Both the position numbers and the translations under genes were made by a program. A stretch of DNA of 62,844 nt, counting the filler, from Octopus bimaculoides (Eukaryota): NCBI RefSeq assembly GCF_001194135.2. It is 9 parts of 9 records of this genome, joined end to end, with 100 filler letters (N's around TTAATTAATTAA, not from the genome) between each part and the next. Parts side by side here need not be neighbours in the genome. Positions count along the whole stretch, not along the records: positions 1 to 16,147 come from NC_069004.1; positions 16,248 to 22,493 come from NC_068982.1; positions 22,594 to 28,190 come from NC_068988.1; positions 28,291 to 35,932 come from NC_068995.1; positions 36,033 to 37,101 come from NC_068983.1; positions 37,202 to 43,582 come from NC_069009.1; positions 43,683 to 58,382 come from NC_068997.1; 2 more parts are not named here. The stretch is one strand, 5' to 3'. Every line of letters starts with the position of its first letter. The stretch's first letter is position 1. The notes below the pieces were generated by a model. That model searched no databases. It was not told the origin of the DNA and saw nothing but the letters and a program-made list of their open reading frames with translations. Positions 10,341 through 49,265 of this stretch are shown here, in pieces.

Positions 10341-10842
10341 TATCTGTAAATATAATATGTGATAATTATTCGGTAGCCATGATAAAACTCCAAGTTTTGG
10401 ATGTTGGGGCGGAAACCCATGTCGGCATCTCTTCAGTTATTGGGCCATCGGAAAAAATGCTATGGAAATGACCGTTAAATAAAGGGAAATTACTGTGTGA
10501 TTGACCGTTATTAAGACAAAAGACCTATTAGAATGACCGCTAAGTAAGGGAAGGGAGTAAAGGTAAGGGAGTAGAAATGTTCATAGTAATCGTGTAAGCG
10601 CACATGTCCATACATACACTTACGCGATTACTCTGAATATTTACTCCCTCCCCTTACTTAGTGGTCATTCTAATAGCTCTTTTGTCTTAATAACGGTCAA
10701 TCACACAGTAATTTCCCTTTATTTAACGGTCATTCCCATAGCATTTTTTTCGAGATGCTGGTGTGGGTTTCTGCCCCAACATCTGAAACTCAGAGTTTTA
10801 TCATGGCAACCGAATAATTGTCACATATTATATTTACAGATA
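10341..10842. repeat. ~500-bp imperfect palindrome (fold-back), probably an inverted pair of PLE-type terminal repeats
   Basis: 10341-10600 is the reverse complement of 10617-10842 apart from transitions and two indels. The loop is ~16 nt. Confidence 0.9.
10381..10442 (-). ncRNA. Degenerate type I hammerhead motif in left arm of palindrome
   Basis: AUAA-CUGAAGA-GAUG...CAUC-C-(A)AAAC-UUGGA-GUU-UUAU. G12 reads A. The opposite arm (10785-10802, +) retains GAAACUCAGAGUU-UUAUC. Confidence 0.55.
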
Positions 10843-10869
10843 TGTATGTCTTTGTGTGTATATGTATGT

Positions 10870-10927
<58 letters not shown>

Positions 10928-11311
10928 CTACATATGTGTATGTATATGTATTTATGTATATATTTATATGTATATCTACATGTATGTATATATGTACATA
11001 TATATATATGTACACATACACATATAAGTATGTATATACATATATATCTAAATATGTGTGTGTGTGTATACACACTTGTATTGAGGTTGGTGATGCAAGT
11101 AGGAAAATATAACTCAAAACATGAGTATATATACAATTTTTATTAATGATCTTCAGATGTATACACATTTGTATATATAATGGTCATCTGTGGCTCTTAA
11201 AATGGTAGGTGTCTTTAATATATATATATGTATCTATATATATATGTGTGTGCATATATGTGTGCATACCTACACACGTGTGCATATACATATGTGTACA
11301 TATATATAAAA

Positions 11312-11349
<38 letters not shown>

Positions 11350-11401
11350 ATAGGTGTTTTTAATATATATATGTACATGTATATATGTGTGTGTAGATAG
11401 A

Positions 11402-11443
<42 letters not shown>

Positions 11444-12264
11444 CGTACATTTATTAAAATATATATTTACATATGTGTGTGTATATGTATGTATGTATAT
11501 ATATGTACGTACACACACTCGCACATATACATTTACACTCTCATTCCCCTTTGACACACATAAAAGCAGTGATCAAAGATGTTTTTATATGTTGCCGCCA
11601 ACAATCAGAATGAACATTTAGCCATGTTGTCTTGAAGCAAACTCAATTCTGAGAAAGTGTCGTTTGCGACGAACATGTTTTATTGATGTTTGTATCATTC
11701 AACCGGAGACAGACATCAAAAGCAGTGCGATAGCGGAGAATATATATACGTCACCTCTAACTATTTCTTTCCCTTGTTTCATCATCTATCTGCTTGTTTA
11801 TTCCGACACTAGAGCTGATAAGGAGACTGTAGATAAACATATCCCATGATAATTTTGCTGCTAGAATATCTGTAAATCCACACATATTTTCCCAGTTATA
11901 TTGTCTCCTGAGGTCCAAATGACACAGTAATTTAGATGCAATTTCTCTGCTTTACTGGAATGAGCGTAGTTTTATGTAAATTGACTGATGGGTTGGTTGG
12001 TAAGGAATTTTACTGTTAACTGTAACCAAGACGAAAGTCACTCACATCCTTTCAGCTGCTCTGCTTCCTTCATGCCTATGATTGTCTTAGTAGTTAGCTC
12101 TTCATAGCTCAGTCTACATGGCTCCAAGTAGGTGCAGCGTAGCCACACTATAATTCACTGCTTGAAGCAGTAGCAGCTCTTATATTGATGAATGATTGGT
12201 GTATGACTTGCCATGTTTTCAGTTGGAGTTTGTTGTACTGATCGGTTCACTTTTTGTATTAGTT

Positions 12265-12830
12265 TGACTCTCCATGGTGCTCAGCCAGACTCTCCATGGT
12301 ACAGAGCTGCACTCTTCATGGTGCTCAGCTGGATGTTCCATGGTGTTCAGTTGGACTCGCCATGATGCTTGGCTGGGTGCTCTATAGTTCTTGACTGAGT
12401 GCTCAATGGTACTCAGCCGAATGCTCCATGGTGCTCATTTGGGCTGTCAATGGTGCTTAGCTAGACACTCAAGTTTGACTCCCTATGGTGCTCAGCTGAA
12501 CTCTCCATAGTGCTCAGCTGGACTCTCCATGCTGCTCAGCTGGACTCTCCATGGTGCTCAGCTGGACTCTCCATGGTGCTCAGCTGGACTCTCCGTGGTG
12601 CTCAGTTGAAGTCTCAATGGTACAAGTTGGACTCTCCATGATGCTCAACTGGTCACTCCATGATGCTCAGTTAGACTCTCCATGATGATTAGCTGTACAT
12701 TCCATGGTGCTCAGCTTGAGAATCCAAGGTGCTGCTCGGACTCTCAATGGCGGTCATTTGGACCATCTATGGTTCTCAGCTGGATTCTTCATGGTGCTCA
12801 TTTGGATTCTTGTGCTCTGCTGAGTTGGAA
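12265..12830. repeat. 22-bp minisatellite (GCTCAGCTGGACTCTCCATGGT), about 24 copies
   Basis: Near-perfect units at ~12485-12605, degenerate towards both edges. Confidence 0.9.
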
Positions 12831-13200
12831 TGATAACTGAGATGGCCTCCCATGTGTGCTGGGTTGCAATATCCTAAAGTAAAATATTTTAAAGTACTGT
12901 GTTGGATTTCTTGTGGAGTCAAACTTGACGTTTATAGTAGTTTCAATATTCTTTTCTCCTCCAGGCACAAGGCTCGAAAGGATGAAAGGCAAAGTCAACT
13001 TTGGTCGAATTTGAATTCAGAATGTAAAGACAGACGAAATACCGCTAAGCATTTTGCCTAGTGTGCTAACGTTTCTTATTTCTTTACTGCCCACAAGGGG
13101 CTACACACAAACTAGCTCAGAAAGGTAGGGATGCTACTCCCCAAGAACCCTTTTGGAGCCCCCCTATCTCAACAGGGGTCCATATAAAATTATATATATG

Positions 13201-13244
<44 letters not shown>

Positions 13245-14169
13245 CAAACACCTAATATAAGCACAATACTTTGTTATATAGGCACCACATATTTAGACAC
13301 ACATCTTTATACACACACAGACATATAGATATTACATATATTAGATCCGCCCACTACTCTGCTTGATTTGCTATCTCTCAGAATTACTATTAATGTCTGC
13401 TGTTACATCCCAGACAGCCAGGTGGTTTTCTTCATGAAATTCTACAGATGTCATTACGTATTTATTAGACACCTTCTGTATATGTGTGTGTGTGTGTGTA
13501 AGTATGTGGGTGTATGTGTGTGTAGACACATTTGGATTTATGGATGTTTGTTCATGTGTGTGTGTAGCACATGCCTCAAAGATAGACTGCATTACCACTA
13601 TATTTATTTCTTCTTGTGGAACCACCTCGATACTAGCACCTACCCACTCACCTATGTAAAATGCAAGATAGTCATGAATCTCCCCCACAACAAACCTGTT
13701 CCTACTTCTTTCTGTTGTACATTAACTTCTCAACACTATTCTCCCAATCAGCTGAGGGAACTCATTAGTATTGTAAAATACAAGGAACCTCACCAGTGCT
13801 GGTGCCATGTAAAAAGAGCATCAACAATGCTGTTTAACCTTTAGCACACTGATTTGCCCCTAGAATAGTTTTCCCTACCACTGCATTATTTTTGAGGGAA
13901 CAGAAGACATGAACATCTACTGTTTTAAAATTGTTATAACTTTCATTGTATTGTGTGTACAAATTTGATTTTTTGTATACTAATAAAAGAATGGATGAAT
14001 GTTATTTTTATGTAATGTATTAAGGAATAGATGAAAGAGTTGCCCCTCAGAAATGTACTTCTTTGGGGCCATTACTTTCCTTAAATCAGCCAGCCATGGA
14101 TGATAGTGTTCACTCGGTGCATCATTCTCAATATAACTGTAAGCCCAGTCTACATCCTCATCATCACCT

Positions 14170-14530
14170 TGAGTAATTTAATTATTGGTATCTGAGTAAA
14201 TCCTTCAAAATCATCATCTGAGTCAGAATCGAACAAGATTTCTTCCAGAAAAGCTTCAAATGTAGAAGTGGCCATTTTTGTTGAGTAAAAAATTCAGAAC
14301 AGTAAGTTCGATTTCAAAGCTTCATCACCTCGTTAATTTGTAAACAATGAAAATGGCATCAAAAAATGAAAGTTTAACCTCATTCTGAAGCGAAAGTAGC
14401 CTGGAAATAAAGATAGTGATGTGTTTTATATTAAGCACCCTTCTTAAGGCAACAAAATGCACATGCAGCTACAGGGGTGAAAACTTGTGAGTGACAAATT
14501 GCGACAACAGCATGGAGAACATTAAAGTGG
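14170..14530 (-). mobile_element. piggyBac-like 5' remnant
   Basis: MATSTFEAFLEEILFDSDSDDDFEGF, an acidic N-terminus resembling that of the 39.3-kb element. Confidence 0.45.
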
Positions 14531-14667
14531 CTGGTATTTGGAAGGGCATCCAACCAAAGGAATCATGCTAAGCCAGAATATTGGAGCAAGATTTAGTATT
14601 CTGACCTGTCTTGTTCCAGTCCAATCTTTGCCAGCATGGAAAGTGAAGGTTTATGAAAAAAAAGAAG

Positions 14668-14707
<40 letters not shown>

Positions 14708-15012
14708 NNNNNNNNNNNNNNNNNNNNNNNNNNNNNNNNNNNNNNNNNNNNNNNNNNNNNNNNNNNNNNNNNNNNNNNNNNNNNNNNNNNNNNNNNNNNN
14801 NNNNNNNNNNNNNNNNNNNNNNNNNNNNNNNNNNNNNNNNNNNNNNNNNNNNNNNNNNNNNNNNNNNNNNNNNNNNNNNNNNNNNNNNNNNNNNNNNNNN
14901 NNNNNNNNNNNNNNNNNNNNNNNNNAGTGGACTGAGTACTTTCTACATGGCACCAGCACAGGCAAGGTCAGTTTTGGCATGGTTTTTACAGCTGGATGTC
15001 CTTCCAAATGCC

Positions 15013-15210
15013 AATAATAGATCACAGCATTTGTTTCTGCACTGCACACCAGCTTTAAGTTGCTGAATTTATATTTATGATAAATACTAATATAGAAGAA
15101 CCTTCTATATAATAATTATGAAGAATGTTCTCCTATTATATTATATGAATATAAACTTAGCAACTTAAAGCTGGTGTGTGGTGCAGGAATAAACATTGCG
15201 ATCTACTATT
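15013..15210. mobile_element. MITE-like element with ~65-bp TIRs
   Basis: cacaccagctttaagttgct / agcaacttaaagctggtgtg with flanking similarity and an AT-rich spacer. Confidence 0.65.
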
Positions 15211-15691
15211 AAAGCCTGACATCCTCCATCCTTGTATTATATTATCCTTGTATTAATCTTAGGTAAAGAGGACTTCCACATATGTACCTGGTTCTGGAAT
15301 ATACCCTACTGTAGGATAACATGTGATAGCCAAATAACAACATAAGAGCTACTATTTTTACACACAATTATACTAAATATGTATGTATATAAAACAAAGA
15401 AGGATTAGTTAAGGATTAGTAAGTAGCCAAAGCTAAATACTTCTTAAGCTCTCTGCATATAAAAATACACTCGACTAACATGAATGTCTTGGGATCAGTA
15501 TTGCACTCCAAGTAATCTGAAATCAAAGTCCATCACCAGTCAAATTTGTAAATCCATGGTACCATTATCCACTTGAGATGGTATGTTTTTACCAAGCGAT
15601 ACATAGAATAGACAGAAACGATGGGTTATATGGTTATATCATTTTACTTATTGTAGGCTTAAATGTATATAACCCATTATTTCTGTCTATT

Positions 15692-15752
<61 letters not shown>

Positions 15753-16147
15753 CACATTTATAGTGAGGGTGCATGGCTTAGTGGTTAGGGTGTTGCACTT
15801 ATGGTTGCTAGATTGTGATTTCAATTCCTAGACCGGGTGGTGTGTTGTGTTCTTGAGCAAAGCACTTCAACTCACGTTGCCCTACGATAACTTAAACACC
15901 TGACACATGGCACAATGTCAATTTGAGGAGTAGACAGCTGACAACTGAGCAAGGGTTGTTATTTGTCCCGTTTTCAATTTTTTTTTTCTCGTTGTTTGTG
16001 TATTTAACTTGCTTGTTTTTGTACTTCATGTTGTTTACAGTTGGTGACATCCTGTACCCATATATGCATATATATATTATTTATATTATTATTTAATTGA
16101 ACACTACGCATCAATTTCCACATAAGTTTATATATATATATATATAT

Positions 16148-16247
16148 NNNNNNNNNNNNNNNNNNNNNNNNNNNNNNNNNNNNNNNNNNNNTTAATTAAT
16201 TAANNNNNNNNNNNNNNNNNNNNNNNNNNNNNNNNNNNNNNNNNNNN
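16148..16247. other. Artificial scaffold spacer N44-TTAATTAATTAA-N44 (also at 22494, 28191, 35933, 37102, 43583, 58383 and 61170)
   Basis: The identical 100-nt layout occurs eight times. The 12-mer gives stop codons in all six frames. Confidence 0.97.
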
Positions 16248-16282
<35 letters not shown>

Positions 16283-16439
16283 AAGATAGAAAATAGTTGT
16301 AACACACATGTGGTACTGGAATGCCACATGTGCTGTAAGCCATATATCTGGATAAATGAGTGTGCATGTATGTGTGTTTATGTCTACATTTCCATCCTTG
16401 GATTTACATGTGAGTGTTTATATTTGATTTAGCTCATGT

Positions 16440-17080
16440 ATGATGATGATTGCTTCATCTTGACAGATGATAGCTGTCCCATCATCACACACATCACACA
16501 GCACAATCACTCCGTTGATGAGCCCTTAGATGACTTTTAAGACCAGATGCTGATTGACAGAGTTTAAAACACAAGTGACAGATGTTATTGAAGTTTTTTT
16601 ACTGCCCACAAGGGGCCACACACAGGGAGGACAAACAAGGAAAGACAAACGGATTAAGTCGATTATATCGACTCCAGTGCATAACTGGTACTTATTTAAT
16701 CGAGTCCGAAAAGATGAAAGGCGAAGTCAACCATGGCAGAATTTGAACTCAGAACGTAGCGGCAGATGAAATACCATTAAGCATTTTGCCCGGCACGCTA
16801 ATGTTTCTGCTAGCTCGCCGCCTTAATTGATGTTATTGAAGTTTCATCTATATCTTTGCTCTTTGGAATCTGATTTTGAAGGAATGTTTTTGTGAATTAG
16901 CATATGTCTTTTAAGTCCAGATATTGTCTTAAAAGTTTTTTGACATATGACACAAGTCATAAGAGGCAGTCGGTGTCTAAAATCATTACCTATCTGGGCA
17001 TTACAATTTTCACAGGACTTCATATGATTCACGTATCCTGCTTTTGACAACAGAACACGGTCACATATAATACATGTTGC
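16440..17080 (-). mobile_element. LINE (probably RTE) 3' end with three tandem C2H2 fingers, interrupted by a SINE
   Basis: CIICDRVLLSKAGYVNHMKSC, CVICQKTFKTISGLKRHMLIH and CHLCFKLCQSASGLKSHLRAH in one frame once the SINE is removed (one TGA). (CAT)n tail at 16440-16450. Confidence 0.7.
16597..16828 (-). mobile_element. tRNA-derived SINE (family B) with 16-bp TSD
   Basis: Same sequence as 9733-9965, flanked by GATGTTATTGAAGTTT at 16581-16596 and 16829-16844. Confidence 0.9.
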
Positions 17081-17380
17081 TATTTATACCTGCATTTGTA
17101 TATTTTAATCTTTTACTGCATCAATGCACACAGACCGCTAAACATTAAATGAGTCTATGACTTAGTATGTGTGTGTGCATGTACACACACATGCACATGT
17201 GTGAGCGTGTGTACATAGGCAAGGTACAGTATGGGCAGATTTCTGAGTACCAACGAACATTTATGCAGATATAACAGTTTAAAGAATAAGCGTATTATAA
17301 TGGATAATACTAAGTGGACTTTTCCTTTTTCTCTCTCTTTTTCTTTTTTCTTTGTCATGTAATCTTGGGACTGAAAATGT

Positions 17381-17477
17381 TTGCGGCTGAAGATAGCTTT
17401 AAACCATCCTTTATATCAACAATATATACTGATGTAATGACAGTTTGTGTATAAAGCTTGAAACACGTGTACCGCAA
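17381..17477 (+). ncRNA. Type I hammerhead ribozyme motif, nearly intact
   Basis: UUGCGG-CUGAAGA-U-AGCUUUA-[50 nt]-UAAAGCU-U-GAAAC-ACGU-GUA-CCGCAA. 6-bp helix I, 7-bp helix II, palindromic helix III (ACACGUGU), GUA cleavage triplet. Confidence 0.75.
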
Positions 17478-17515
17478 TATCCTTTGTGCTCTGTTATCAA
17501 TTTACGTTTGATATA

Positions 17516-17592
<77 letters not shown>

Positions 17593-18051
17593 TATATATA
17601 GATATAGATCTACAGATATAGATCTACAGATATAGATCTACAGATATAGATATAAATATGGATATAAATATATGTATATACATATATATTTTTGATATAT
17701 ATCTATAGTATATAGATGAATTCCATGAACTGTGTGTGTTGTACGTGTTTGTATGTGTTTGTGTGCATTTGTGTATACCTGTGCATGTGAGTATGTGTGT
17801 TGTGCATATGTGTGTACGTGTGTGTGTGTATGTGTGTGTGTGTGTGTGTGCGCGTGTGTGTGTACGAGGTATAAAATAAATACTGGAACTAGCTCTAAAC
17901 CTCTTAAGATGTGTAACGACAGAAAGTCATAAAACGTTTAAACTTATATTACGGCAGTAATTAATAAAAGATTGTATTACATCAACATGAAAAGTCATTA
18001 TATGAAAGACATGGAACAAACTGTTCAGTATGATATATATACCTACATACC

Positions 18052-18087
<36 letters not shown>

Positions 18088-18255
18088 NNNNNNNNNNNNN
18101 NNNNNNNNNNNNNNNNNNNNNNNNNNNNNNNNNNNNNNNNNNNNNNNNNNNNNNNNNNNNNNNNNNNNNNNNNNNNNNNNNNNNNNNNNNNNNNNNNNNN
18201 NNNNNNNNNNNNNNNNNNNNNNNNNNNNNNNNNNNNNNNNNNNNNNNNNNNNNNN

Positions 18256-18310
<55 letters not shown>

Positions 18311-20400: not shown

Positions 20401-20442
<42 letters not shown>

Positions 20443-22851: not shown

Positions 22852-22852
22852 C

Positions 22853-22900
<48 letters not shown>

Positions 22901-32935: not shown

Positions 32936-33020
32936 AATATATGGGTGTATGAATGTGTGAATGTGTGTTTGTATAGGTGAGCGTGTATGTATGGTGTATG
33001 TGTGCGTGTATGCATGTGCG

Positions 33021-33051
<31 letters not shown>

Positions 33052-33540: not shown

Positions 33541-33584
<44 letters not shown>

Positions 33585-34362
33585 TGATGATGATGATGAT
33601 AATCCTTCCTACTATAGGTACAAGGACTGAAATTTGGTGGGAGGAGGTAAGTCAATCATATTGACCCCAGTACTTGACTGATACTTAATTTATCGACCCC
33701 GAAAGAATGAAAGGCAAAGGCAACCTCGGCGTAATTTGAACTCTGAACGTAAAGACAGACGTAAATACCGCTAAACATTTCGCCTGGCGTTCTAACGATT
33801 CTGCCAGCTCGCTGCCTTCATAATAACAAGAACAAGAACAACAATAATAATAATAGGCACGTCTTAATATTTTTCCTTTTTAACTCCGAACCTCAGTTCT
33901 ATAAATATGTCGCCATAAATTCTATTCCGATGTGCACGTTAAACATAAACCTTGTGTGTGAGCAAGTACTGTAGTTTTATATATATTCATCACTTCTCGG
34001 TGTTGGTACTTTTGGTATTATTATAAAAACGTTCCACATTCGATATTGCTCACCAACTTTTCCATGGAAACGTTAATATTCCAAATAAAAGTTCATTGGT
34101 TCTTTAGATTATAACATTTTTAGATTGGTCTGGAAAAGACAAATAAATAGATAAACAAAACAAAAGAAATAAAGGAAGAAAAGAAAAGAAAAAAAAACAG
34201 AATTTCCTTTTGGATATCAGCATCAATCGATCAAGTCTAATAATATTGAACTTCATTCGATATTCACCTCATGTTATCACGATTAGTCACAGCTAACAAA
34301 GTTGGCTTTAAATCAACAAAATAGATCGGCTGCGCAGAGATTAGTAACTTGGCGAAGCATCA

Positions 34363-34423
<61 letters not shown>

Positions 34424-34901: not shown

Positions 34902-34933
<32 letters not shown>

Positions 34934-35765: not shown

Positions 35766-35932
35766 CGCAGGAGTGGCTGTGTGGTAAGTAGCTTGCTTAC
35801 CACCCACATGGTTCCAGGTTCAGTCCTATTGCGTGGCACCTTGGGCAAGTGTCTTCTACTATAGCCTTGGGTCGACCAAAGCCTTGTGAGTGGATTTGGT
35901 AGACGGAAACTGAAAGAAGCCCGTCGTATATA
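35766..35932 (+). mobile_element. tRNA-derived SINE family A (CORE-like); other copies at 1-135, 1068-1225(-), 10185-10262, 20440-20830, 21070-21300(-), 43258-43582(-), 43683-44005, 55655-55945, 60230-60560(-) and 60979-61135
   Basis: Box A (tggctgtgtggt) and box B (ggttcagtcc), the CORE-like accttgggcaagt motif, and a variable (TA/TG)n insert between the 5' and 3' modules. Confidence 0.9.
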
Positions 35933-36039
35933 NNNNNNNNNNNNNNNNNNNNNNNNNNNNNNNNNNNNNNNNNNNNTTAATTAATTAANNNNNNNNNNNN
36001 NNNNNNNNNNNNNNNNNNNNNNNNNNNNNNNNGACTTGG

Positions 36040-36900: not shown

Positions 36901-37201
36901 CTAATAGTTACTTTTGAAGTTTTCTCTGAACATTCAAATGTCAGTTTACCAAGAAAGAAATAATGAAGCTATAAGTAGTGTTAAAATGGAAGTAAGCCGA
37001 GTTTTTGCATCACTCCATAATTCACACGTATATGAAAAAAACTGTATCAACATATTCCAAAAGTTTTCCTACGCTCACACGTTTTGTTAATGAAACGTTT
37101 CNNNNNNNNNNNNNNNNNNNNNNNNNNNNNNNNNNNNNNNNNNNNTTAATTAATTAANNNNNNNNNNNNNNNNNNNNNNNNNNNNNNNNNNNNNNNNNNN
37201 N

Positions 37202-37912
37202 CCCTCCTGCTCCCACACCTACCCGGCCATGCTTTCCTGAAGCAGGGGTCGGCAAGGGAAGAGTCACTGATGCTGTCGACACCACTGGCATCCCACTGAC
37301 CACATGGTGGCCAGCATGTTGCTGTTGCTGTTGCTGCTGCGGCAGAGGAGGAGGACCATGCAGGTGTTGCTGTTGCTGGGTCGGAAGAGCCAAAAGGGGT
37401 GGTGGCGCTGATGTCTGCCCCACTAATTGCGATTCGTCCATTGTGCTGCCAGCACGATGGTGATAAACCATCTGGTCGTGTTGCTGTTGTTGTTGCTGCT
37501 GTTGTTGGCTGATCGAGGTCAAGAGGTCGATCCCAACTAACGACTGCGAAGGAGCGGATGCTGGAACGTAGTTGCTGGTCATGGATTGGTGACCACTGGC
37601 CGTTGACTGTCCCAAGTGACCACTACTTGGTGCTTGTTGTTGTTGCTGTTGTTGCCCACTTCTGGTTTGTTGTGGTGGTGGTGGTTGCTGTTGTTGTTGC
37701 TGTTGTTTCTGAGCCATATGACTGTGGGCCGTTGGCTGAGATCCTCGGCCGTGCTGTGAGGTCAAATGTGATGACTGCTGACTCTGACCTGGTCCCTGAC
37801 TTTGCTGCTGCTGCTGTTGTTGTTGTTGTTGTTGTGGTGGTGGTGGTGGTTGCCCAATTGCGGCTGCCTGACTACTGGATACTGATGATACAACCTGCTG
37901 CTGCTGGGGTTG
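37202..37912 (-). CDS. CBLL1: Hakai low-complexity Q/P/H/S-rich C-terminal region (continuation after gap; stop codon not visible)
   Basis: Open frame QPQQQQVVSSVSS...GKHGRVGVGAGG between the gap at 37913-38310 and the spacer at 37102-37201. The frame differs from the upstream part only across the unresolved gap. Hakai has a Pro-rich tail. Confidence 0.75.
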
Positions 37913-38310
37913 NNNNNNNNNNNNNNNNNNNNNNNNNNNNNNNNNNNNNNNNNNNNNNNNNNNNNNNNNNNNNNNNNNNNNNNNNNNNNNNNNNNNNNNN
38001 NNNNNNNNNNNNNNNNNNNNNNNNNNNNNNNNNNNNNNNNNNNNNNNNNNNNNNNNNNNNNNNNNNNNNNNNNNNNNNNNNNNNNNNNNNNNNNNNNNNN
38101 NNNNNNNNNNNNNNNNNNNNNNNNNNNNNNNNNNNNNNNNNNNNNNNNNNNNNNNNNNNNNNNNNNNNNNNNNNNNNNNNNNNNNNNNNNNNNNNNNNNN
38201 NNNNNNNNNNNNNNNNNNNNNNNNNNNNNNNNNNNNNNNNNNNNNNNNNNNNNNNNNNNNNNNNNNNNNNNNNNNNNNNNNNNNNNNNNNNNNNNNNNNN
38301 NNNNNNNNNN

Positions 38311-38535
38311 TGTGGGTGTGGCTGCTGGGGTTGGGGTGGCTGTGTCTTTGAAGCTGGCGGAGGGTCAGGTCCTGCACCTTGCCGCAAATGACGGTGGTTG
38401 ATGTGGGCTTGCAGGTCACGCTGAGACAGGTATGTCCGGCGACATCCAGACACACCATGTTTTGCACCACCAAAGGTGCATACAAACACAGAACCCAACG
38501 CTGACTGCTCAATTCGTTGCACAGGGTCACCACAT
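38311..38535 (-). CDS. CBLL1: E3 ubiquitin ligase Hakai, 5' part of last coding exon (end of RING region plus C2H2/HYB zinc-binding motif)
   Basis: Acceptor ttttctttttctgcAG at 38537-38536. One nt completes the previous codon, then [49 protein letters not shown], matching the recalled Hakai motif [10 protein letters not shown]...[20 protein letters not shown]. Runs into an N gap at 38310. Confidence 0.95.
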
Positions 38536-38619
38536 CTGCAGAAAAAGAAAATGATAACTGATGGAAAAGAAACAAAAATTTACAGAAAAACTAAACAAAA
38601 TGCATAAAAAAGTGCCAAT

Positions 38620-39190
38620 CTCCAAATTTGGAAGGAAACTGGGGAAGAGGTAAACCCAGGAAGATGTGGGATGAGGTGGTGAAATGTGATCTTTGGATGC
38701 TGAATCTCACTGAGGATGACAAGTGACTAACACCTTTGATGATTTGCTCTAAAGACATGTCAAGCTCAATGAAATCATTATCATGGCCAGTGCTGGTGAC
38801 ACATGAAAGGTACCCATGCCAGTGATGCATGTGAGGTACTCATTCTGGTGACATGTAAAAGACACCCATGCCAGTGACACATGGAAAAAAAACCCCCCAT
38901 CCTGGTGACACATAAAAAGCACCTGTGCCAGTGAAACATATAAAGCATCCATACCAGTGAGAAGTAAAAGGCATCCATGCCAGTGCCAGTGATATGCTGA
39001 AGGAATCCATGCCAGTGATATGTAAAAGGTTTTCATGTCAGAGACACATAGAAGATACAACACCTGACACATAAAAAGCACCCGGTACAATTTGTAAAAT
39101 GGCTAGCATTAGGAAGGGCATCCAGCTGTAGAAATCAAGCCAAACTGACTGGAGCCTGGAGCAGTTCTCTGGCTTGCCAGCTCCAGTAAA
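38620..39190 (+). mobile_element. RTE LINE 3' end (family C) with expanded ~29-bp tandem array
   Basis: GRGKPRKMWDEVVKCDL peptide, about 10 degenerate catgccagtgacacatgtaaaaggcacc units, then the ggaagggcatccagc 3' UTR. Confidence 0.75.
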
Positions 39191-39260
39191 AATACGAATT
39201 GTAAAAATAGACCAAAAAATAGACCTAGAAAAATAATTTGGTTTGCCCCTCCTTTCTTCC

Positions 39261-40205
39261 TTAACCCTTTCGTTACTAACCCGGCCGTAGCTGGCCCAAA
39301 AAAATTTTGGTTCATAAGACTAACCTGGCCATAGCCGGCCGAGCGTACCCATTGTTATTTAAATGTATATTTGAACCCAAATCTCGTTAGTACATTCGTT
39401 AAAACACCTGATTTCACTTTGCAAACAGTTGAGTTATTGTCTCTGACATTGTTTGGCGTGATATTTGAACTCAGTGAATTTTGGAAGATTTTTTTCCACA
39501 TTTTTTGCGGCGTTGATTTTTTTTCAACTTTGAAGATGGAGAGGAGTTTCATGCTATCAAGCAATGATTCCGAATTTGAAGGTTTTTCAATAGAAGATAT
39601 GGAGATATCGAAGAAAAGAATGAATGAGCTACAANNNNNNNNNNNNNNNNNNNNNNNNNNNNNNNNNNNNNNNNNNNNNNNNNNNNNNNNNNNNNNNNNN
39701 NNNNNNNNNNNNNNNNNNNNNNNNNNNNNNNNNNNNNNNNNNNNNNNNNNNNNNNNNNNNNNNNNNNNNNNNNNNNNNNNNNNNNNNNNNNNNNNNNNNN
39801 NNNNNNNNNNNNNNNNNNNNNNNNNNNNNNNNNNNNNNNNNNNNNNNNNNNNNGGTATTAGACAGTTACCCAGAATAACATATTACTGGAGCGATCAGGA
39901 ACCTTTTGGCGATGAATATATTTCCAGTATTATGAATGAGTACGATTCGTGAAGCTGAACCAATATTTACATGTGAGAGACACTAGCAGTACCCCAGTAC
40001 GTGGAGAACTTTCAGACAAAAATTATGCAATAGATGATTAAGAACCCTTTCTTTAATTATGTTCCAAATATCACATTAATATGTTGATAAATAAAAAAGT
40101 AACAGGTGTTTAATGAGACTAGTCTAAATTCATGATTATTTTGGAATTTAATTGAAACTCATGAGGGGTGTATTTTGGTCAGAAATATAGTAACGAAAGG
40201 GTTAA
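39261..40205 (+). mobile_element. Internally deleted piggyBac transposon in Hakai intron
   Basis: TTAA-CCCTTTCGTTACTA at 39261 and TAGTAACGAAAGGG-TTAA ending at 40205 (TIRs with TTAA TSD). Acidic N-terminus (SSNDSEFEGFS) and the core fragment GIRQLPRITYYWS...ISSIM are present. Confidence 0.92.
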
Positions 40206-40219
40206 TGTTAAGATTGATA

Positions 40220-40810
40220 CAGCCAAGAAATCCCTGTCTCTTTTTGATAAACATTTTCCAATAAATCATAAATCCAGGAAAATTTTTAACTGATGCTCAA
40301 TAAAAATATACAGCTGCTGCACCAATATGAAGAACATTCTAGCTGACAAAAATCACCAAGAAACCACTCCTGATCATAGTTGTCAAGACCCTGAAGCTTG
40401 CCCACTTCACCAGACACATGTCTGGTGAAGTGGGCAAGCTTCATATATGAGGCTGAAGTTACAGCTATGCTCCAAAACAAATCAATTGAAAAGAAGAATT
40501 ACATCGGACTATGTGAGGGTGAATTCAAGAGACATTATGCAAACCACCTATATTTTTCCCAACACATCAATAAAAGTAGTGCAACTAAGTTGTATGGAAT
40601 TTGAAGGGTAGCTCCACATCACACACAATTAAGTGGAGAATAGTGCAGAAATCCAAGTCATATGTTAATCAATCTAAGAAATGCAACTTATGCATAGCAG
40701 AAAAATCTCATATTCTTCTTAGATTCAGCAATTTCAACACATTGCTTAATTCCAGATCTGAAATTTTTAGCAGGAGCAGACACATGAACAGGTTTCTTTT
40801 ATTAAATTGG
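40220..40810 (+). mobile_element. Penelope-like retroelement remnant (RT thumb/linker, Cys cluster, GIY-YIG endonuclease), frameshifted
   Basis: Pieces read LFDKHFPINHKSRKIFN, CQDPEACPL, IYEAEVT...NYIGLCEGEFKRHY and IKWRIVQKSKSYVNQSKKCNLCIAEK...LLNSRSEIFSRSRHMNRFLL, typical of the PLE C-terminus. Confidence 0.85.
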
Positions 40811-41104
40811 AGGTCACCACCCACTCCAGACTTTCACATTTTTTGTTATTTTGCTCTAAATCAGTTCCATTTAATGTGTTTTCTGCAATCAGGGAGGACG
40901 AGGATTGTAGTTCTTCATTTCGTTTCTTTTTCTTGTTCCATTTTTTGCACCAACTTTCTTAATGTATTTTCTTATTGTCCAGCCTCCTTGTTTTTAAAAA
41001 TTATAAATAACGCCTAAGCAGAACTTGAAAGCTTGCTTTATGCCTTTTCAAGTATCATAATAGCATGAGACTATTAGTAGCTCTTTTGGTTGTGTATTTA
41101 ATTT

Positions 41105-41152
<48 letters not shown>

Positions 41153-41189
41153 GAGAGATAGATAGATAGATATGAATTAGAAGCAGCCC

Positions 41190-41624
41190 AAGGAATATAA
41201 ACAATATTGAACACACACACACAATGTATTTTGTCAGTTTGTGGGCAGGCAGCGATTGTAGGTGTAAGAGAATATATTCTAATCAATTTACCTGGTGTTA
41301 AAACACCTACAAGTCATAGAGAAGCAAGATAACTTGCATCAGGTCCCATTAGAGGAGTGATAGACATTAATGTTTTGTCGTTTGTGACTTGTCAATACCG
41401 TATGCCCAAAATGGGGCCAGGTGCAAGCTAAATCGCTTTCTATGACAAAATGCAAAATAGTGTAAGATGACGAAACATTAATGTCTACTGCTCCAGTAAA
41501 GGGACCTGATGCCAGTTATGTCACGTGTCCATGACTTTCAGGTGTTTGAACACCAGGCGAATTCATGAGAATATACTCACACCTACAATCGCTTCCTGCT
41601 CATACACTTACAAAACACATACCT

Positions 41625-41669
<45 letters not shown>

Positions 41670-41690
41670 TTGATATTGTTTATTTATANN
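41190..41690. repeat. Diverged ~500-bp inverted repeat
   Basis: 41190-41385 and 41468-41690 are reverse complements (e.g. gcgattgtaggtgt / acacctacaatcgc, gacattaatgttt / aaacattaatgtc). The spacer is ~80 nt. Confidence 0.8.
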
Positions 41691-41818
41691 NNNNNNNNNN
41701 NNNNNNNNNNNNNNNNNNNNNNNNNNNNNNNNNNNNNNNNNNNNNNNNNNNNNNNNNNNNNNNNNNNNNNNNNNNNNNNNNNNNNNNNNNNNNNNNNNNN
41801 NNNNNNNNNNNNNNNNNN

Positions 41819-41851
<33 letters not shown>

Positions 41852-42298
41852 AAGGATGAAGTGGTGACAAAGGATCTTCAGATGCTGGGCCTCACTGAGG
41901 AGATGACAAAAGACTGGGACTTGTGGTGATATGCTGTACTTGAGAAGACATGTCAAGCTAAATAAAAATCACAGCCATCCATGCACACAGGCATGTCCTA
42001 TACAGCCATGCACCCATCTGTTTTCAAGCAAATAATATTCCCCCCCCCCCAATGGCCAAACATGTTCTCACAGTATGTTGGAAATGAATGATGCTCCTTG
42101 TATGACAGTGACACTCATTTACAACTACCATGTGATGTCAAGACAAGGAGACACATACATACATGACAGACTTCCATCTACTAAATCCATCCACAAGGCT
42201 TTGGTTGGCTTGGGGCTATTGAAGAAGATGCTTGCCCAAGACACCAGAAACGTGGTTGGGAAGCAAACTTCTTACCACACAATCACATCTGGGCAGTG

Positions 42299-42515
42299 TG
42301 TGTGTGTGTTTGCAAATCCAATGGAGGCCTCAAAAGACATTTTAAGATCCACAAAGAGAACTTATCTGCAGGTGGTCCAAATCGGAGGTGCAATCTATGT
42401 AGGTATCTTTTCAGAACATTATCTGGTTTAAAAAAACAAATCACATGCCATGATGGTGCTAAGGTGTAAGTACAGGAAGTGGTCAAACTCTGCATACAGA
42501 GTAGACAACCACCAT
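42299..42515 (+). mobile_element. LINE-like 3' end with two C2H2-type fingers
   Basis: VCKSNGGLKRHFKIH...CNLCRYLFRTLSGLKKQITCH..*, followed by a short UTR and a (TA)n run. Confidence 0.55.
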
Positions 42516-43847
42516 ATATATATATATATATATATATACTATATATTTATGAAAAGGGCAGACATTGTCTCACAAGCAGTTGTGCAGGCAAAAGTGTTAG
42601 TAAATGTGGTTGGATTGTGCTGAAAATTTGCACACCTATGTTAAATGTGCTGGGGAGTATGCATGCCAACTTTCAGTTTGCTCAATTGGAAAGCGTGGCC
42701 GCTAGGGCAAAATTGCTGATCTTTAAAATGGACTTTGATGTGTTTGTGTTCCTCTCTTTCTGCCTATCAGCCTTTCTTTCTCAATCTCTCTCGCTCCCTT
42801 CCTTTCATTGTGTCTCCACAACGGCATCTGGCAGCTTCCTCTCTCTTTCTTTCCCTCTCCGTCTTCGCTATCTCTCTGTCACTCTTTCTCACCCCGCCCC
42901 TCTCTCTCTCTCTCTCTCTGTATGTCTGTCTGTATCTATAGAGAGAAAGCAATGACTGCCGCCAGTGTTCCTCTATGTGGCAATTGATGTTCAAGAAATA
43001 ACAGCCAAATCAAGTGTATTAAAATATACATATGTACATACATACATACAAAGAACAAAACTGGTGACCATATGTGTTTAATGGAGAGGAATAAAAAAAT
43101 AACCATATTTTGTTGAAAACACATTTTACTGACTTCAAGTTTGAATATTTCCACCACAAGGCTTTTAGAATGGTGAATTATTATCGCTCACCACCACTGC
43201 ACCATCATGATAACAGATATTATTAATCAGATATTTGCGTTAATTTATATATGTGTGTATCTCTTTTACTTGTTTCAGTCATTTGACTGTGGCCATGCTG
43301 GAGCACTGCCTTTAGACGAGCAAATCGACCCCAGGACTTATTCTTTGTAAGTGTAGTACTTATTCTATCGGTCTCTTTTGCCAAACTGCTAAGTTACGGG
43401 GACGTAAACCCACCAGCATCGGTTGTCAAGTGATGTTGGAGGGACAAGCACAGACACACAAACATACACATATATATATACATATATACGACAGGCTTCT
43501 TTCAGTTTCCGTCTACCAAATCCACTGACAAGGCTTTGGTCGGCCCAAGGCTGTAGTAGAATACACTTGCCCAAGGTGCCACNNNNNNNNNNNNNNNNNN
43601 NNNNNNNNNNNNNNNNNNNNNNNNNNTTAATTAATTAANNNNNNNNNNNNNNNNNNNNNNNNNNNNNNNNNNNNNNNNNNNNAGCCACATGGTTCCGAGT
43701 TCAGTCCCACTGCGTGCACCTCGGACAAGTGTCTTCTACTATAGCTTCGTGCCGACCAAAGCCTTGTGAGTGGATTTGGTAGACGGAAACTGAAAGAAGC
43801 CCGTTGTATATATGTATATATATATATATATATGTGTGTGTGGGTGT

Positions 43848-43880
<33 letters not shown>

Positions 43881-45439
43881 TGTATTTGTCCCCCCAACAT
43901 CGCTTGACAACCGATGCTGGTGTGTTTACGTCCCCGTAACTTTGCGGCAAAAGAGACCGATAGAATAAGTACTAGGCTTACAAAGAATAAGTCCTGGGGT
44001 CGATTAGATTCCTTGGAAGAAAGCACCGAATGTATACAAAAACAAGGACAGAAAAAAACGAACCATGTTACACAAATACAATAAAAATAAAAATAATAAC
44101 AGGACATAACAACAGATGTCTTTCGACTAAGGACGAATTAAATTAAGCTGGCGTAAATGGAAATAAGGCCTTACAGCAGGGATACAAGATTTCACAGGCA
44201 CAGGGAGGAATATCAATGTTGCACGCACAACGGCCGGCGAAGAAAGATCAGGCCTGGCCGAACGACGATCACGTGGGAAGAGAAGAGAGAGAGAGGTAGA
44301 GGCAGAGGAACAAAAGAATTAAGGAGGGGCGAGAAAAAATGACAGGGAAAGTGAGCAAGAAGAGAAGGCAAGGAAATGTGAGAGAGTGGGGACGAAAGAA
44401 CGAAGAATGGAATGAATGAATAAGGGTGAAGAGGTTGATAGACAAAAATAGAGTCGTACAAGATTTAGAAAAATGTATGCTTCTGCACTGACAGAGCACA
44501 CACACAAAGGCACGAAGCTCGTTAAAAACTAACACACAAACTCGCAAATAATATGGAGCTGAATATTTACAGTTTAAAATTACTTTAAAATTGCTAGAGA
44601 TAGCTTTCGTGTTGTGTTACCGGAAATGACTCTTTAATCTAGCAAGAGATTTACAAATTTTTCCATGCAGACGATATGAAAATGCTTGATTTCGCTGTAA
44701 AGATTGCTGGACATTGTTATTCCGACATTTCATGTTCCTTATCAACCGAATTTACTTCTGCATGTCTTATTGCAAACAAAGGAAGATAATTTATCAAATT
44801 GTGACTGAGAAAAGTCTGTAGGGGGCCTAAATATGTGCTTCCGGTTATGATTATCTAGTCCAGCTTGAGAGTGGTAAATACGGATGCAGGTATCAGAAGA
44901 CTGGAGAGAAGGATCATTGCCATAAATAAATCTTGCCTTTTTTTTCCATCAGTGTATGTTTCTACTTATTATTTTCAGACAAGGCAGCATCTCGCATTTT
45001 TCTCCTCCATTTTTGTCGGTCAAGTGCATCACTGACCCAGTTTGCATGTATCCGTTTGAAATACTTTAGAGATTACTTATTAAATCCTTGAAACGTGTTT
45101 TTGGCTTACAATGAGGCTTCTTTCCTTCTTAGTATATGTAGATTTATTTTCTACATTCAATTTTGTATTTTGAAGAGAAATCTCAAGTTCATAATATGAG
45201 TTAGAAGCTGGTTAAAACAAAACAACAGCTTTATCTGCAGTTGTTATCCTAAAGACCATACGGGATTCGTCAACTGATTGAAAAGGTAATCAAATCACAG
45301 TCATCTACATGCAATAAATCTTTTATTTGAAAGGTAAAGTCTTTGTTTTTGCTGACAACTTTCTCAAATTAAATAATTTACCAGTACTTCTATAATGAAT
45401 ATGTACACTTTTCCAGCTATCTTTGAATGTATTTGCAAA

Positions 45440-46680
45440 CACAGCCTAAAAGTATAGAAAAAATAACGTTGGACTAAGAATGTATCCCCAGTTAACTCCA
45501 TTCTCCACTTTAAAAGACTCTGAAAGAACTCTTCCAACCTTAATTAATACGTCCATGTTTATCATGAAAATACCTTATCATGTTCCCAAAATGGATGGGA
45601 AGCCAAGCTTACGCAAAACCTCCCATAATGAAGGTCTATTCACTGCATCAAGGGCCTTTGTTCAATCAACAAAAACGTGGACTAAATCTAGATTTTCTTC
45701 GTGACATTTTTCTTGAACCTGATGTGCAGAAAAGATCATATCCACGATCCCACTATTTGATCCCATATTGAGATTCCCGGAAATCATTTGGTGGAATCTT
45801 ATCGTTTAATTTTGCAAGGAGAACCCCAGTAAGTACTCTACCAGCAGAGGACAAGCATGTGCTTCTGTTCCCTTATAAATAGGGATTATAACACCATCAC
45901 GCCAAGCTTTTGATACTGTTCTTATCTGCCATACATCACAAATTATTTTATGCTTTAATTTTGCCATATTGTAACCTCCAAACAGGAAAAGCTCTGTTGC
46001 AATTCTATCTACTCCCGGTGCTTTTTCAGGATTGTTTACTAATAGAGATTTGAACCTCTTCAACTGACGGAATACTATTTAATTCATAAATGATTGACAT
46101 TTGCAGAAGATTGGAGATGATATCATCATCGACATTAGAATTTTGTAAAAATAAGTAAGAAAAATGCTCTTTCCATCTTTTTGCAATAGCTTCCATTGGT
46201 GTAAAGAGTGTTTCTCCGTTGCCTGAGCATAGAGGTATCATTCTTGCACCTTTATTGCCATATGCTTTTCATTTTATGAGAGCATAAAACTTTAATCATT
46301 ATGGCAATCAGTAGCTGATTGAATATCTTTTGACAAATCCCCACTACCAATTTTCCTCCATACCTATTATTGCTCTTTGTACCTATACTTCAACTCGTTT
46401 TAGTTCATTTTGTATCTATTTGCGTTTAATAGAGGATAAAGTATTCTGAAGAAGTGATTTTCTGCTCAAGTAGCAGAGTTATCTGTGTTATTTTCATAAA
46501 TCCAACCCCGATTATCAGCTTTTTTTGAAGAACAAGTAATTCAGAGGAGACACCAAAAAATTATTTTGTAATTTACCCTATGAAGTTAGATCCTGAATTG
46601 ATGAAAGATGTTCCTGAAAATCTTCCTGCGCATCAGGATTTTAAGCCTTCCTACATTATGTTTTGTTAAGGTCTTATTGT
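45440..46680 (-). mobile_element. Decayed RTE-clade LINE, reverse transcriptase region
   Basis: KAPGVDRIATELF...WRDGVIIPIYKG, then GVLLAKLN...SQYG, with many stops and frameshifts. Confidence 0.85.
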
Positions 46681-47749
46681 TAGATTGTGCCTGGGATGTA
46701 TTGTCATTTTAATATTTGTTCTAACTAGTGCGTGATCTGACCAACAATTCGCTCTTTTTAAGGAACGAGCGTCAAGTGCATCTTTCTACCTCTTCGCCTA
46801 ACAATTACAGAATCAATGTTACATCACCCCGAAGTCGCTCTTCAACTCTACTGGTAACATGTAACTCAGTAGAACCTTTTGCATGGTCAGGTTATTGGCA
46901 ATTAAACTGGCAACCCCACCGAGCTTGCGTTACTGAAGAGGGTGCGTGTTGGATACCCTGCAGGACAAAAGATAAAACACATCACAAGGTAGTGGAATTC
47001 ATGAGTAGTCAACGGCTATCCAACAATGTGTACATATTATATATATTGTCTATGCATGTGTATGCATGTGTGCATGTATGTATGTATGTATGTATGTATG
47101 TATGTATTTATGTATGTATGTATGCATGTATATATATATATATNNNNNNNNNNNNNNNNNNNNNNNNNNNNNNNNNNNNNNNNNNNNNNNNNNNNNNNNN
47201 NNNNNNNNNNNNNNNNNNNNNNNNNNNNNNNNNNNNNNNNNNNNNNNNNNNNNNNNNNNNNNNNNNNNNNNNNNNNNNNNNNNNNNNNNNNNNNNNNNNN
47301 NNNNNNNNNNNNNNNNNNNNNNNNNNNNNNNNNNNNNNNNNNNNNNNNNNNNNNNNNNNNNNNNNNNNNNNNNNNNNNNNNNNNNNNNNNNNNNNNNNNN
47401 NNNNNNNNNNNNNNNNNNNNNNNNNNNNNNNNNNNNNNNNNNNNNNNNNNNNNNNNNNNNNNNNNNNNNNNNNNNNNNNNNNNNNNNNNNNNNNNNNNNN
47501 NNNNNNNNNNNNNNNNNNNNNNNNNNNNNNNNNNNNNNNNNNNNNNNNNNNNNNNNNNNNNNNNNNNNNNNNNNNNNNNNNNNNNNNNNNNNNNNNNNNN
47601 NNNNNNNNNNNNNNNNNNNNNNNNNNNNNNNNNNNNNNNNNNNNNNNNNNNNNNNNNNNNNNNNNNNNNNNNNNNNNNNNNNNNNNNNNNNNNNNNNNNN
47701 NNNNNNNNNNNNNNNNNNNATATATGAGTAACAAAGATGTACAGGTGTT

Positions 47750-48900
47750 AATTCATAATGGCCGTTTCAAGCGACTCCTTTAATTGATTACATCATTGCA
47801 AAGAAACCGTTTTCGCCAGATAACTACATAGACTTCAAACACAAAAGACAAACCAACTGCTTTAATATATTCGTATCACCAACGGAGCTCAAATATTTAC
47901 ATTGATTCTGCTACTATATCTTTGGCAGAATGAGTTTATAAAAATAGTCAATGTAGTGTCGAATTTACTAGAATTTAGAGGTTAGTAGAGGTTATAGTGG
48001 TGGGAGGAATAATTGAGAATGGTGATCTAGTTACCTACACTTCGAAGACAATAAGAGGAATGTAGTCTTCAATCATATAAAATTAAATCTTTTGGGAGAT
48101 GTAGCTTTTTCCAGACAAAGATGATAAATTAATTAATATCATGACAGCCTACTAGACAATCTAAGTACTGGAACCTTATATCCGGCTTTGTCTACACCAA
48201 AGAGTAAGGCTTGGGGTGGTAAAAGATGGAGGAATACCTGATGGGGAAGGAGTAATAGTTGAAAGAACCATACTTATTTTGACTGTCATCTAATGATACT
48301 TATTTTGATTGCCATCTTAAAGTGGAAGCTAATAAAAAAAAACTAAAGGAATAAGTATTAGGAATTAGGGGTGGAAGATAAGTACAGAGAATAAGGGGAG
48401 GAACACATTGCAACTCAGCATATTTATAATGTTAAATCAAGATATAATTAAATATACAGATGAAAATTTTAATAAGGGGATACTTGAAAATATAAGAGAA
48501 ATATTAAGACTTTTCATCAATGTAGTGTATAGAATATCCTGGTAAAGTATTATATGATGGATGTATAAAGGAAATATCTATAATACAAATAGATACTTAT
48601 AGTATGAAATTAAACTGATATTAAACTCATACCCGTCAAATACGGATGGGTAAAGATAGGATACAGTAAGAAATGAGAGCAAATGTTTAGGTTATGTAAA
48701 TTAGAAATATTAAATATATAAAGGAGTACATTTATGTACAAGATTTAAGCGAATTTCCTATAATCACATAATGAGTATCATGTATAATTAAAAAATATAA
48801 AATAAAATAAGAAAAAAGTATAAATTGTCACAAATTTCTAAGCTATAAAAATTATAAAAATATATAAAGGATATATAAAGGCATAAAATTATAAAAATAA
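47750..48900 (-). mobile_element. Heavily decayed Penelope-like element
   Basis: Weak peptide traces (IDEKS*YFSYIFKYP; GYKVP...SGKS..SQKI) followed 3' by a degenerate hammerhead-like motif at 47753-47823. Confidence 0.35.
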
Positions 48901-49064
48901 AATATAAGAATTTATAAGATATAATGTGTGATTAAAAAATATATAATAATACGAACTATAAAAAAAAACAAGAAAATATATAAAAGGGTATATAAAGGCA
49001 TAAAATATAAAAATATAAGTTATAAACAAATTTTTTAATACAGTTCTATATTTAAGAGATGAGG

Positions 49065-49265
49065 AATTATGTACATTATTTACATTTGACGGATATTTGT
49101 CTTCATCTTGTTTGTTGTTAACACAACGTTTCGGCTGATATACTCTCCAGCCTTCATCAGCTGTCTTTGGGAAATTTCGAACCTGGGTTCTCATTCCTAA
49201 TGAATTTTTTCGATGTTATTATTATTATTCAGATCACTGCCTGGAATCGAACTCAGAATCTTGGG
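49065..49265 (-). mobile_element. 5'-truncated SINE-like element carrying a hammerhead motif
   Basis: Box-B GTTCGATTCC (49252-49243), second GGTTCGAAA (49183-49175), hammerhead 49165-49120, and an aatgtaaataatgt-type tail. Confidence 0.5.
49120..49165 (-). ncRNA. Minimal type I hammerhead ribozyme motif
   Basis: GACAG-CUGAUGA-A-GGCUG-gagaguauau-CAGCC-GAAACGUU-GUGUU. 5-bp helix II, loopless palindromic ACGU helix III, helix I with a G.G mismatch at the first pair. Confidence 0.7.

Follow-up and report, generated by a model that had tools for sequence, protein, structure and literature searches.

Penelope-type hammerhead motifs in Octopus bimaculoides DNA and a tRNA-headed, SINE-like family probably mobilised by Penelope-like elements

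The DNA analysed here (the window) is a 62,844-nt stretch of the Octopus bimaculoides genome (GCF_001194135.2), made of nine parts of nine records joined with 100-nt filler. It is AT-rich animal DNA (33% GC) with gaps and numerous microsatellites. The original prediction placed type I hammerhead ribozyme motifs at seven sites in it and took them for several unrelated families of Penelope-like elements (PLEs) and retrozymes. Such a motif was located no more than about 60 nt from each predicted position. The seven sites represent five unrelated kinds, A to E, whose elements show no BLASTN similarity to one another. The sites and the elements that carry them are as follows.

10353..10830, no single strand: insertion A, a fold-back of two head-to-head copies of one end resembling a pseudo-long terminal repeat (pLTR), with 156 of 171 aligned bases identical
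10382..10440, minus: hammerhead A(−), with its 5′ core at 10436–10430, G12 changed to A and a damaged helix III (covariance-model E-value 0.089)
10752..10801, plus: hammerhead A(+), with an intact 3′ half (GAAAC and palindrome) and predicted cleavage after 10797
17381..17477, plus: hammerhead B, an intact type I motif like those of the Hydra clade of PLEs, with predicted cleavage after 17471
41224..41620, no single strand: inverted pair C, with 124 of 153 aligned bases identical and both arms stopping at (TG)n about 140 nt past the cleavage site
41359..41399, minus: hammerhead C(−), whole but decayed, with three core transitions
41469..41488, plus: hammerhead C(+), 3′ half only, its 10-nt palindrome being that of Hydra-related locus L054
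47753..47823, minus: hammerhead D, with its true 5′ core at 47819–47813 (A6 changed to G in this copy), followed by a 12–13-bp helix II
49038..49265, minus: 5′-clipped copy of element E, 228 nt, the family having, further 5′, a tRNA-like head that is missing here
49121..49164, minus: hammerhead E, minimal consensus-type, with predicted cleavage after 49125
49243..49254, minus: B-box/T-loop-like motif, the part of the tRNA-derived head kept in this copy of E
49038..49071, minus: optional 3′ extension of E, a PLE-like tail of 34 nt between two classes of 3′ end

In B, a 6-bp helix I, CUGAAGA, a U.U apposition, a 7-bp helix II, U-GAA, an 8-nt palindromic helix III (4 bp) and GUA follow one another, and the helix II domain spans 66 nt. 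When B was cofolded as a homodimer, the two helix III palindromes paired with each other. The predicted CUGANGA/GAAA core, with NUH in type I order, is intact in B and E, but no individual copy of A, C or D has it whole; it is restored by the family majority in D and by the partner copies in A and C. Helices I and II are paired and helix III is palindromic in B, in the E family (helix I closed in 96–99.8%) and, apart from base 16.2, in the D family. The helix III of A, B, C and D is an 8–10-nt palindrome of Hydra-clade type.

The arms of insertion A are complementary in what they preserve: one keeps the 5′ core and the other GAAAC and the palindrome; an 18-nt deletion has stripped A(+) of its helix I strand and of the greater part of its 5′ core. 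The two C copies likewise each retain what the other has lost. D forms the 3′ end of a moderately repeated element (approximately 47720–48700) that ends at an AT run beside an N gap. Public sequence data from four of 24 listed runs (two raw RNA, two contig) were aligned to 47720–49420 at 82% likeness, and contig depth over the D element tapers away from the D end. In the D family majority, A6 is back at 47816 (97% of depth, 81 contigs), the base at 47822 closes its helix I pair (93%), and the cleavage position holds an A (98%).

A strict hammerhead descriptor, in which an extra base or mismatch at the foot of helix II was permitted (covering the U.U offset), matched the window twice, at B (17387, plus) and E (49160, minus), and not once in any of 150 local dinucleotide shuffles. 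Perfect 3′ halves numbered three (A(+), B and C(+)), all at predicted sites, against a mean of 0.46 in 200 shuffles, two of which reached three. One-mismatch counts were not significant (13 against a shuffle mean of 8.7, 27 of 200 shuffles; further counts of 3 against 0.31 and 1 against 0.84 in the 150-shuffle test). The predicted excess over shuffled sequence thus held for the strict descriptor and the perfect 3′ halves, but not for one-mismatch counts. Because the latter are at chance level, A, C and D cannot stand singly; A and C are supported by a partner copy and D by the family majority in public reads.

The outside comparison set comprised 97 loci related to the PLE proteins of the window, 64 of them with at least 250 nt of 3′ room, and a covariance model was built from 60 hammerhead motifs taken from such Hydra-related loci. 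Its top three window matches were B (E-value 1.4e-6, 28.9 bits), E (7.6e-4) and A(−). As a control, it found held-out Hydra hammerheads at 24.7–44 bits, on the sense strand and 3′ of the endonuclease, and recovered 9 of 18 held-out loci that the descriptor had missed. C and D were unlisted at E ≤ 10. Rfam returned no hammerhead family at B or E, and the 150 of 265 window rows listed held microsatellite and miRNA noise without a hammerhead. That A, C and D are chance look-alikes, with B and E the only real hammerheads, is considered highly improbable: the one-mismatch counts, the weak or missing model scores and the unremarkable fold z-scores of the A, C and D copies would fit it, and it is opposed by the reciprocal losses of the A copies and of the C copies, by the confinement of every perfect 3′ half in the window to predicted sites, and by the public reads that restore the D core and helix I. 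Two further candidates were rejected, 20943 (plus) as one-mismatch and at chance level (E 1.2) and 30921 (minus) for want of a hammerhead fold. The segment 30860–30935 (minus) forms a very stable double hairpin with CUGAAGA and GAAAC (z −3.5; 0 of 200 shuffles), with neither a hammerhead fold nor an Rfam match.

Among the 64 outside loci with sufficient 3′ room, 47 carry a type I hammerhead less than 700 nt past the end of the endonuclease. The helix III palindromes of these loci are 8–10 nt long and of the kinds seen in A, B, C and D, and of 58 distinct long-helix motifs, 29 share with B the U.U at 10.1/11.1. Craig et al. (2021; PMC8557442) described for Hydra-clade PLEs type I motifs with 8–10-nt palindromic helix III, U.U or an extra base often at the foot of helix II, insertion into microsatellites, inverted 5′-truncated copies and the GIY-YIG type also found in the window remnants; their supplementary table S2 gives the same hammerhead architecture, the Octopus family Hydra-1_Obim included. 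As window-specific features, the helix II domain of B (66 nt) exceeds the 10–31 nt of the 58 Hydra motifs, and A to D, unlike Hydra-clade PLEs, lack an attached open reading frame (ORF). None of five 11–12-nt motifs from the window sites is present in the supplement as available, and the window families therefore look to be other than those it lists.

The insertion anatomy is also that of PLEs, whose hallmarks include inverted 5′-truncated copies and a 30–40-bp tail at one end (PMC8557442). Pairs A and C each consist of an endonuclease-positive PLE-like insertion with an inverted, 5′-truncated partner. As to (TA)n as target, A(+) and D end at an AT-rich microsatellite or gap (by eye), and C ends at (TG)n. 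It is proposed, with a probability of roughly 0.78, that the five kinds are the pLTR 3′ ends of unrelated PLE families, dispersed, truncated and mostly decayed, and that E is the 3′ part of a tRNA-headed family resembling short interspersed elements (SINEs) and mobilised by a Penelope-type reverse transcriptase (RT) and endonuclease. For A to D, the proposed course begins with GIY-YIG nicking of a target that is AT-rich or a microsatellite, from which reverse transcription would be primed at the 3′ end of the RNA; where the RT stalled early, a short pLTR end would remain, in many cases together with an inverted 5′ copy, and neutral decay of the hammerhead would follow. Two copies of an intact parent would be able to cleave as a dimer through their palindromic helix III. 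As background, metazoan PLE hammerheads are reported to form many families per genome, mostly as single copies and with some opposite-strand pairs 100–700 bp apart (PMC4209133). The multi-family PLE hammerhead landscape is therefore known biology: of the predicted PLE/retrozyme ecosystem, the several unrelated families of minimal PLE type stood, the many-family picture had already been published, and the retrozymes did not.

Remnants of PLE proteins lie in the window at three places.

40204..40810, plus: frameshifted Hydra-clade PLE remnant with RT thumb, linker and GIY-YIG end
39185–39256, plus: further piece of the same remnant, found with the same profile of 76 relatives
4029..4241, minus: second Hydra-type remnant, a C-terminal GIY-YIG part

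The remnant predicted at 40.2–40.8 kb was borne out by phmmer relatives and by a profile of 76 full-length relatives, which matches the window at up to 65.8 bits; a 75-amino-acid frame at 40589–40813 has 2052 relatives at E ≤ 0.001. The relatives carry CxCX5C (64 of 76) and LNxRxE..CxH (60 of 76), and the 40.2-kb remnant retains CX5C and CNLC, some cysteines having decayed. RT motifs of the relatives include DK[TSG] (74 of 76) and RWK (39 of 76), and no RT core is left in the window. Judged by their motifs, the remnants at 40204–40810 and 4029–4241 are of the Hydra type, with a C-terminal GIY-YIG domain marked by a CxCX5C linker and by CxxC/CxH around the conserved E and N, the same motifs as the clade described in PMC8557442, in a motif comparison rather than a tree. 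A word-based protein search with the 75-residue remnant gave no match, Pfam assigned no family to any of 21 remnant or flank frames, and among 11 relatives it gave four GIY-YIG matches, all sub-threshold. At approximately 48 kb, where a further remnant had been predicted, no signal was obtained with the Hydra profile, the one PLE clade covered by this test; the frameshift-aware score stayed below 16 bits, against a reversed-sequence maximum of 22.9.

Several observations concern this locus or its relatives. A frameshift-aware profile peak at 41218 was rejected as carry-over from the alignment at 40816. The Hydra remnant is split by an insertion at 39257–40200, one frame of which, judged by eye, looks like the acidic N-terminal part of a DNA transposase. 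A near-perfect 52-nt palindrome lies within the remnant at 40392–40443. The Hydra profile found no relatives among viral contigs. Loci L079–L095 are animal Hydra-type PLEs with hammerheads in contigs of bacterial metagenome-assembled genomes and a symbiont assembly, where they are likely to represent host contamination.

The hammerhead of E combines an intact core, an extra A, a 5-bp helix II with G10.1–C11.1, an ACGU palindrome and GUU. It shares with the minimal PLE hammerheads of Cervera and de la Peña (2014; PMC4209133) the unpaired base between 9 and 10.1, the G10.1–C11.1 pair and the palindromic 15.2–16.2. Pair 2.1–1.1 is broken in the window copy; the family-majority C at 49161 closes helix I and is present in 2835 of 2875 (98.6%) and 2204 of 2226 (99.0%) RNA reads, in 96% of DNA contig depth and in 99.8% of a run with a second species label. 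Among the variant rows listed, no majority change fell at a core position. We infer that E derives from a PLE lineage other than Hydra, because the extra-A/ACGU type is found in Hydra loci only away from the ORF end.

At its 5′ side, the family is headed by a tRNA-derived segment. Beyond 49263/65, 823 and 599 reads of the two RNA runs continue into one shared extension (agreement 0.85–0.95) that the window copy lacks; it recurs in both contig runs, and its read-derived part is 30 nt long. This extension contains an A-box-like 16-mer that matches, base for base, the D-arm of two phage tRNA-Glu genes; in these tRNAs, as in E, 22 nt separate the 16-mer from the T-loop motif, and a 7-nt anticodon-like loop lies in register (by eye). 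E has a tRNA-derived 5′ head with A and B boxes, seen short of its extreme 5′ end, and the joining of this head to the PLE-type part is common to the whole family. Depth drops 3- to 7-fold toward the head, through either 5′ truncation or alignment loss. The head motif has no further occurrence in the window, and Rfam reported no tRNA in the clipped window copy.

At its 3′ side, loose ends fall into two classes, at 49072/73 (1394 and 1064 RNA reads) and at 49038/39 (1000 and 883); among the rows listed for the DNA run, ends fell at 49036, 49039 and 49066. The two ends, 34 nt apart, give E a PLE-like tail of 30–40 bp at one end. The loose-end consensus past them is AT-rich with low agreement (0.39–0.74) and shows neither a common poly(A) stretch nor a common tandem-repeat tail. 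Contig depth has its maximum, 7.7e6, over 49088–49144, against approximately 40 in the unique flank; the ratio of approximately 2e5, in which contig depth is not true copy number, is read to an order of magnitude as roughly 10^5 dispersed copies. E is short, dispersed and high-copy (228 nt plus a head of at least 30 nt, with varied flanks). The claim that the genome hosts non-autonomous members thus holds for at least one such family. The earlier view of E was right that its hammerhead is real but missed its most interesting part, the tRNA-headed, SINE-like nature of the element.

About 6% of each raw RNA run was read, giving 8862 and 6850 aligned records; the former, among 12.9 million records, fell nearly all on E. 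The libraries look unstranded. Between 88 and 89% of aligned RNA reads continue into unlike sequence. This pattern fits passenger transcription without monomer cleavage, although the test is a weak one, and a minimal PLE hammerhead was reported not to cleave as a monomer in vitro (PMC4209133). As a separate observation, a 3-nt deletion at the cleavage triplet (49126) occurs in 367 of 4235 and 252 of 3298 RNA reads, against 0.27% of DNA contig depth. Because a 9-nt deletion at 49066 shows a like RNA excess, the excess at 49126 is most simply put down to a small number of strongly expressed loci.

The same reads bear on whether the sites are monomers of non-LTR retrozymes whose tandem units, located elsewhere, give circular RNAs, the window holding scattered offspring. 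Non-LTR retrozymes are also non-coding, hammerhead-bearing and proposed to be PLE-mobilised (PMC7229834; 10.64898/2026.07.22.740005), and solo monomers of retrozyme families have been described (10.64898/2026.07.22.740005). E is short, non-coding and very abundant, and in Schistosoma the tandem units of Sm-alpha combine a hammerhead with a promoter of tRNA origin. Retrozymes are, however, defined by tandem units of 170–400 nt that each bear a hammerhead (PMC7229834), and the window contains none: none of 101 rows from Tandem Repeats Finder covers a hammerhead site, E reads enter unrelated flanks, and no unit-length head-to-tail joint appears among the 15 of 128 joints listed for 47720–49420. 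Furthermore, the motifs are of minimal PLE type, whereas coral retrozymes have canonical ones (PMC7229834). With most RNA reads running into unlike sequence, this explanation is regarded as unlikely, and the tandem retrozymes originally envisaged were not recovered.

It is more difficult to set aside an origin of E as an ordinary tRNA-SINE, mobilised by long interspersed elements (LINEs), that once captured a PLE pLTR fragment, so that the hammerhead is a passenger and PLE proteins are uninvolved. Both tRNA-SINEs and RTE LINEs abound in octopus genomes (PMC8967140), an RTE-like endonuclease fragment adjoins the window copy of E (by eye), and no PLE partner of E has been found. Against these points, E terminates 3′ in its pLTR-like part, where the RT must recognise its template, the ends of E form two classes 34 nt apart, and the loose-end consensus lacks the shared poly(A) or tandem-repeat tail. 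On balance, a LINE-mobilised origin is possible but doubtful.

E is instead likely to be a PLE-mobilised SINE, as its sequence features suggest. The fuller proposal makes E a SINE of tRNA origin with a PLE, and not a LINE, as its autonomous partner: an RNA polymerase III (Pol III) head fused to a PLE pLTR end, in approximately 10^5 copies and at least two species, with a hammerhead fold that acts as a cis-recognition element for the RT and not as a monomer-cleaving ribozyme. This specific combination is judged about evenly poised between right and wrong. Pol III would transcribe E from the tRNA head, and the lone 2-bp helix III would be silent in a monomer, leaving head and tail joined. The borrowed pLTR end would then serve in trans as the recognition and priming site of a PLE RT, which would leave the optional 34-nt tail. 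The hammerhead fold would serve recognition and not monomer cleavage, because head and tail survive together.

Several results weigh against the proposed PLE origin of the five kinds and of E. The loci behind the covariance model were picked by the same descriptor that was used on the window, so its covariation is partly built in. Family-level data cover D and E only, B being a single copy without family evidence. The G required at 16.2 of D (47759) is absent among the 40 of 380 variant rows listed. A first (TA)3 at 25–50 nt past the cleavage site is found at one of the seven sites, B, where a (TA)n array begins at 17511; the corresponding figures are 19 of 68 Hydra sites and a background of 3.8%. 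None of the five hammerhead kinds has a PLE ORF immediately 5′ of it, and the clade assignment of the sites therefore rests on hammerhead type and insertion anatomy. For E, no partner was found by BLASTN in the 97 Hydra loci or by exact match among metagenome contigs. Of 41 viral matches to its head motif, 39 are not tRNAs, most being one repeated context, so that the match alone is weak. Finally, the cleavage-site read ends expected in RNA-seq were not seen, no start or end pile-up occurring anywhere in the two unstranded runs, which constitute a weak test.

The nearest known kind to E is Sm-alpha. The Schistosoma elements Sm-alpha and Sj-alpha are, like E, tRNA-derived, SINE-like, high-copy and hammerhead-bearing, as related in PMC2770079 and PMC6765202. 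They are tandem, with a canonical motif and monomers cut from multimers, whereas E is dispersed, carries its minimal PLE motif close to the 3′ end and has an optional tail like that of PLEs. The abundance of E also greatly exceeds the few thousand motifs reported for each genome in PMC4209133, whose main text mentions neither tRNA, such as heads E, nor octopus or mollusc. The pairing of a tRNA-headed repeat with a PLE-type hammerhead was not found in the open-access literature, to which this search applied.

E may nevertheless already be catalogued as a SINE. Ohshima and Okada are said to have described, in 1994, octopus tRNA-SINEs comprising three retroposons, and E may be one of these. OR1 or OR2 is cited as a CORE-SINE, with no hammerhead or Penelope link in the accessible portions of the citing papers (PMC4824008, PMC4758252).

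SINEs are classically parasites of LINEs, and the case for PLE mobilisation in trans has to date been made for retrozymes, on grounds of co-occurrence and homology. If the proposal for E is correct, a very abundant element of approximately 270 nt would make directly testable both the cis-elements needed by a PLE RT and the reason why PLEs keep weakly cleaving hammerheads. A major genomic repeat would also place a latent ribozyme in very many transcripts.

Beyond these elements, a possible sixth hammerhead was noted by eye approximately 255 nt 3′ of the Hydra remnant; it is not significant alone.

41023..41083, plus: possible sixth hammerhead, of Hydra type and badly decayed

A paralogue of this end lies at 2712–2798 (minus), and both copies stand just before a microsatellite. 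A duplicated RTE-like endonuclease fragment (49267–49414 and 50224–50370; family by eye) lies against the 5′ side at which E is clipped. A Hakai/CBLL1-like gene has an exon at 38311–38579 (minus; zf_Hakai, E 1.6e-21), with its 3′ exon or exons within 37154–38579 (minus); a search with short motifs found no upstream exons. The region from 38.6 to 62.8 kb may be a Hakai intron holding C(−), D and E in sense, all three as damaged copies, in a stretch that is itself joined from nine records. At least two other many-copy interspersed SINE-like families occur at 620–1227, 5220–5850, 9731–9907, 16594–16825, 33620–33818, 35769–35926, 43489–43804 and 60425–61132, and a 22-nt minisatellite array occupies 12215–12810.

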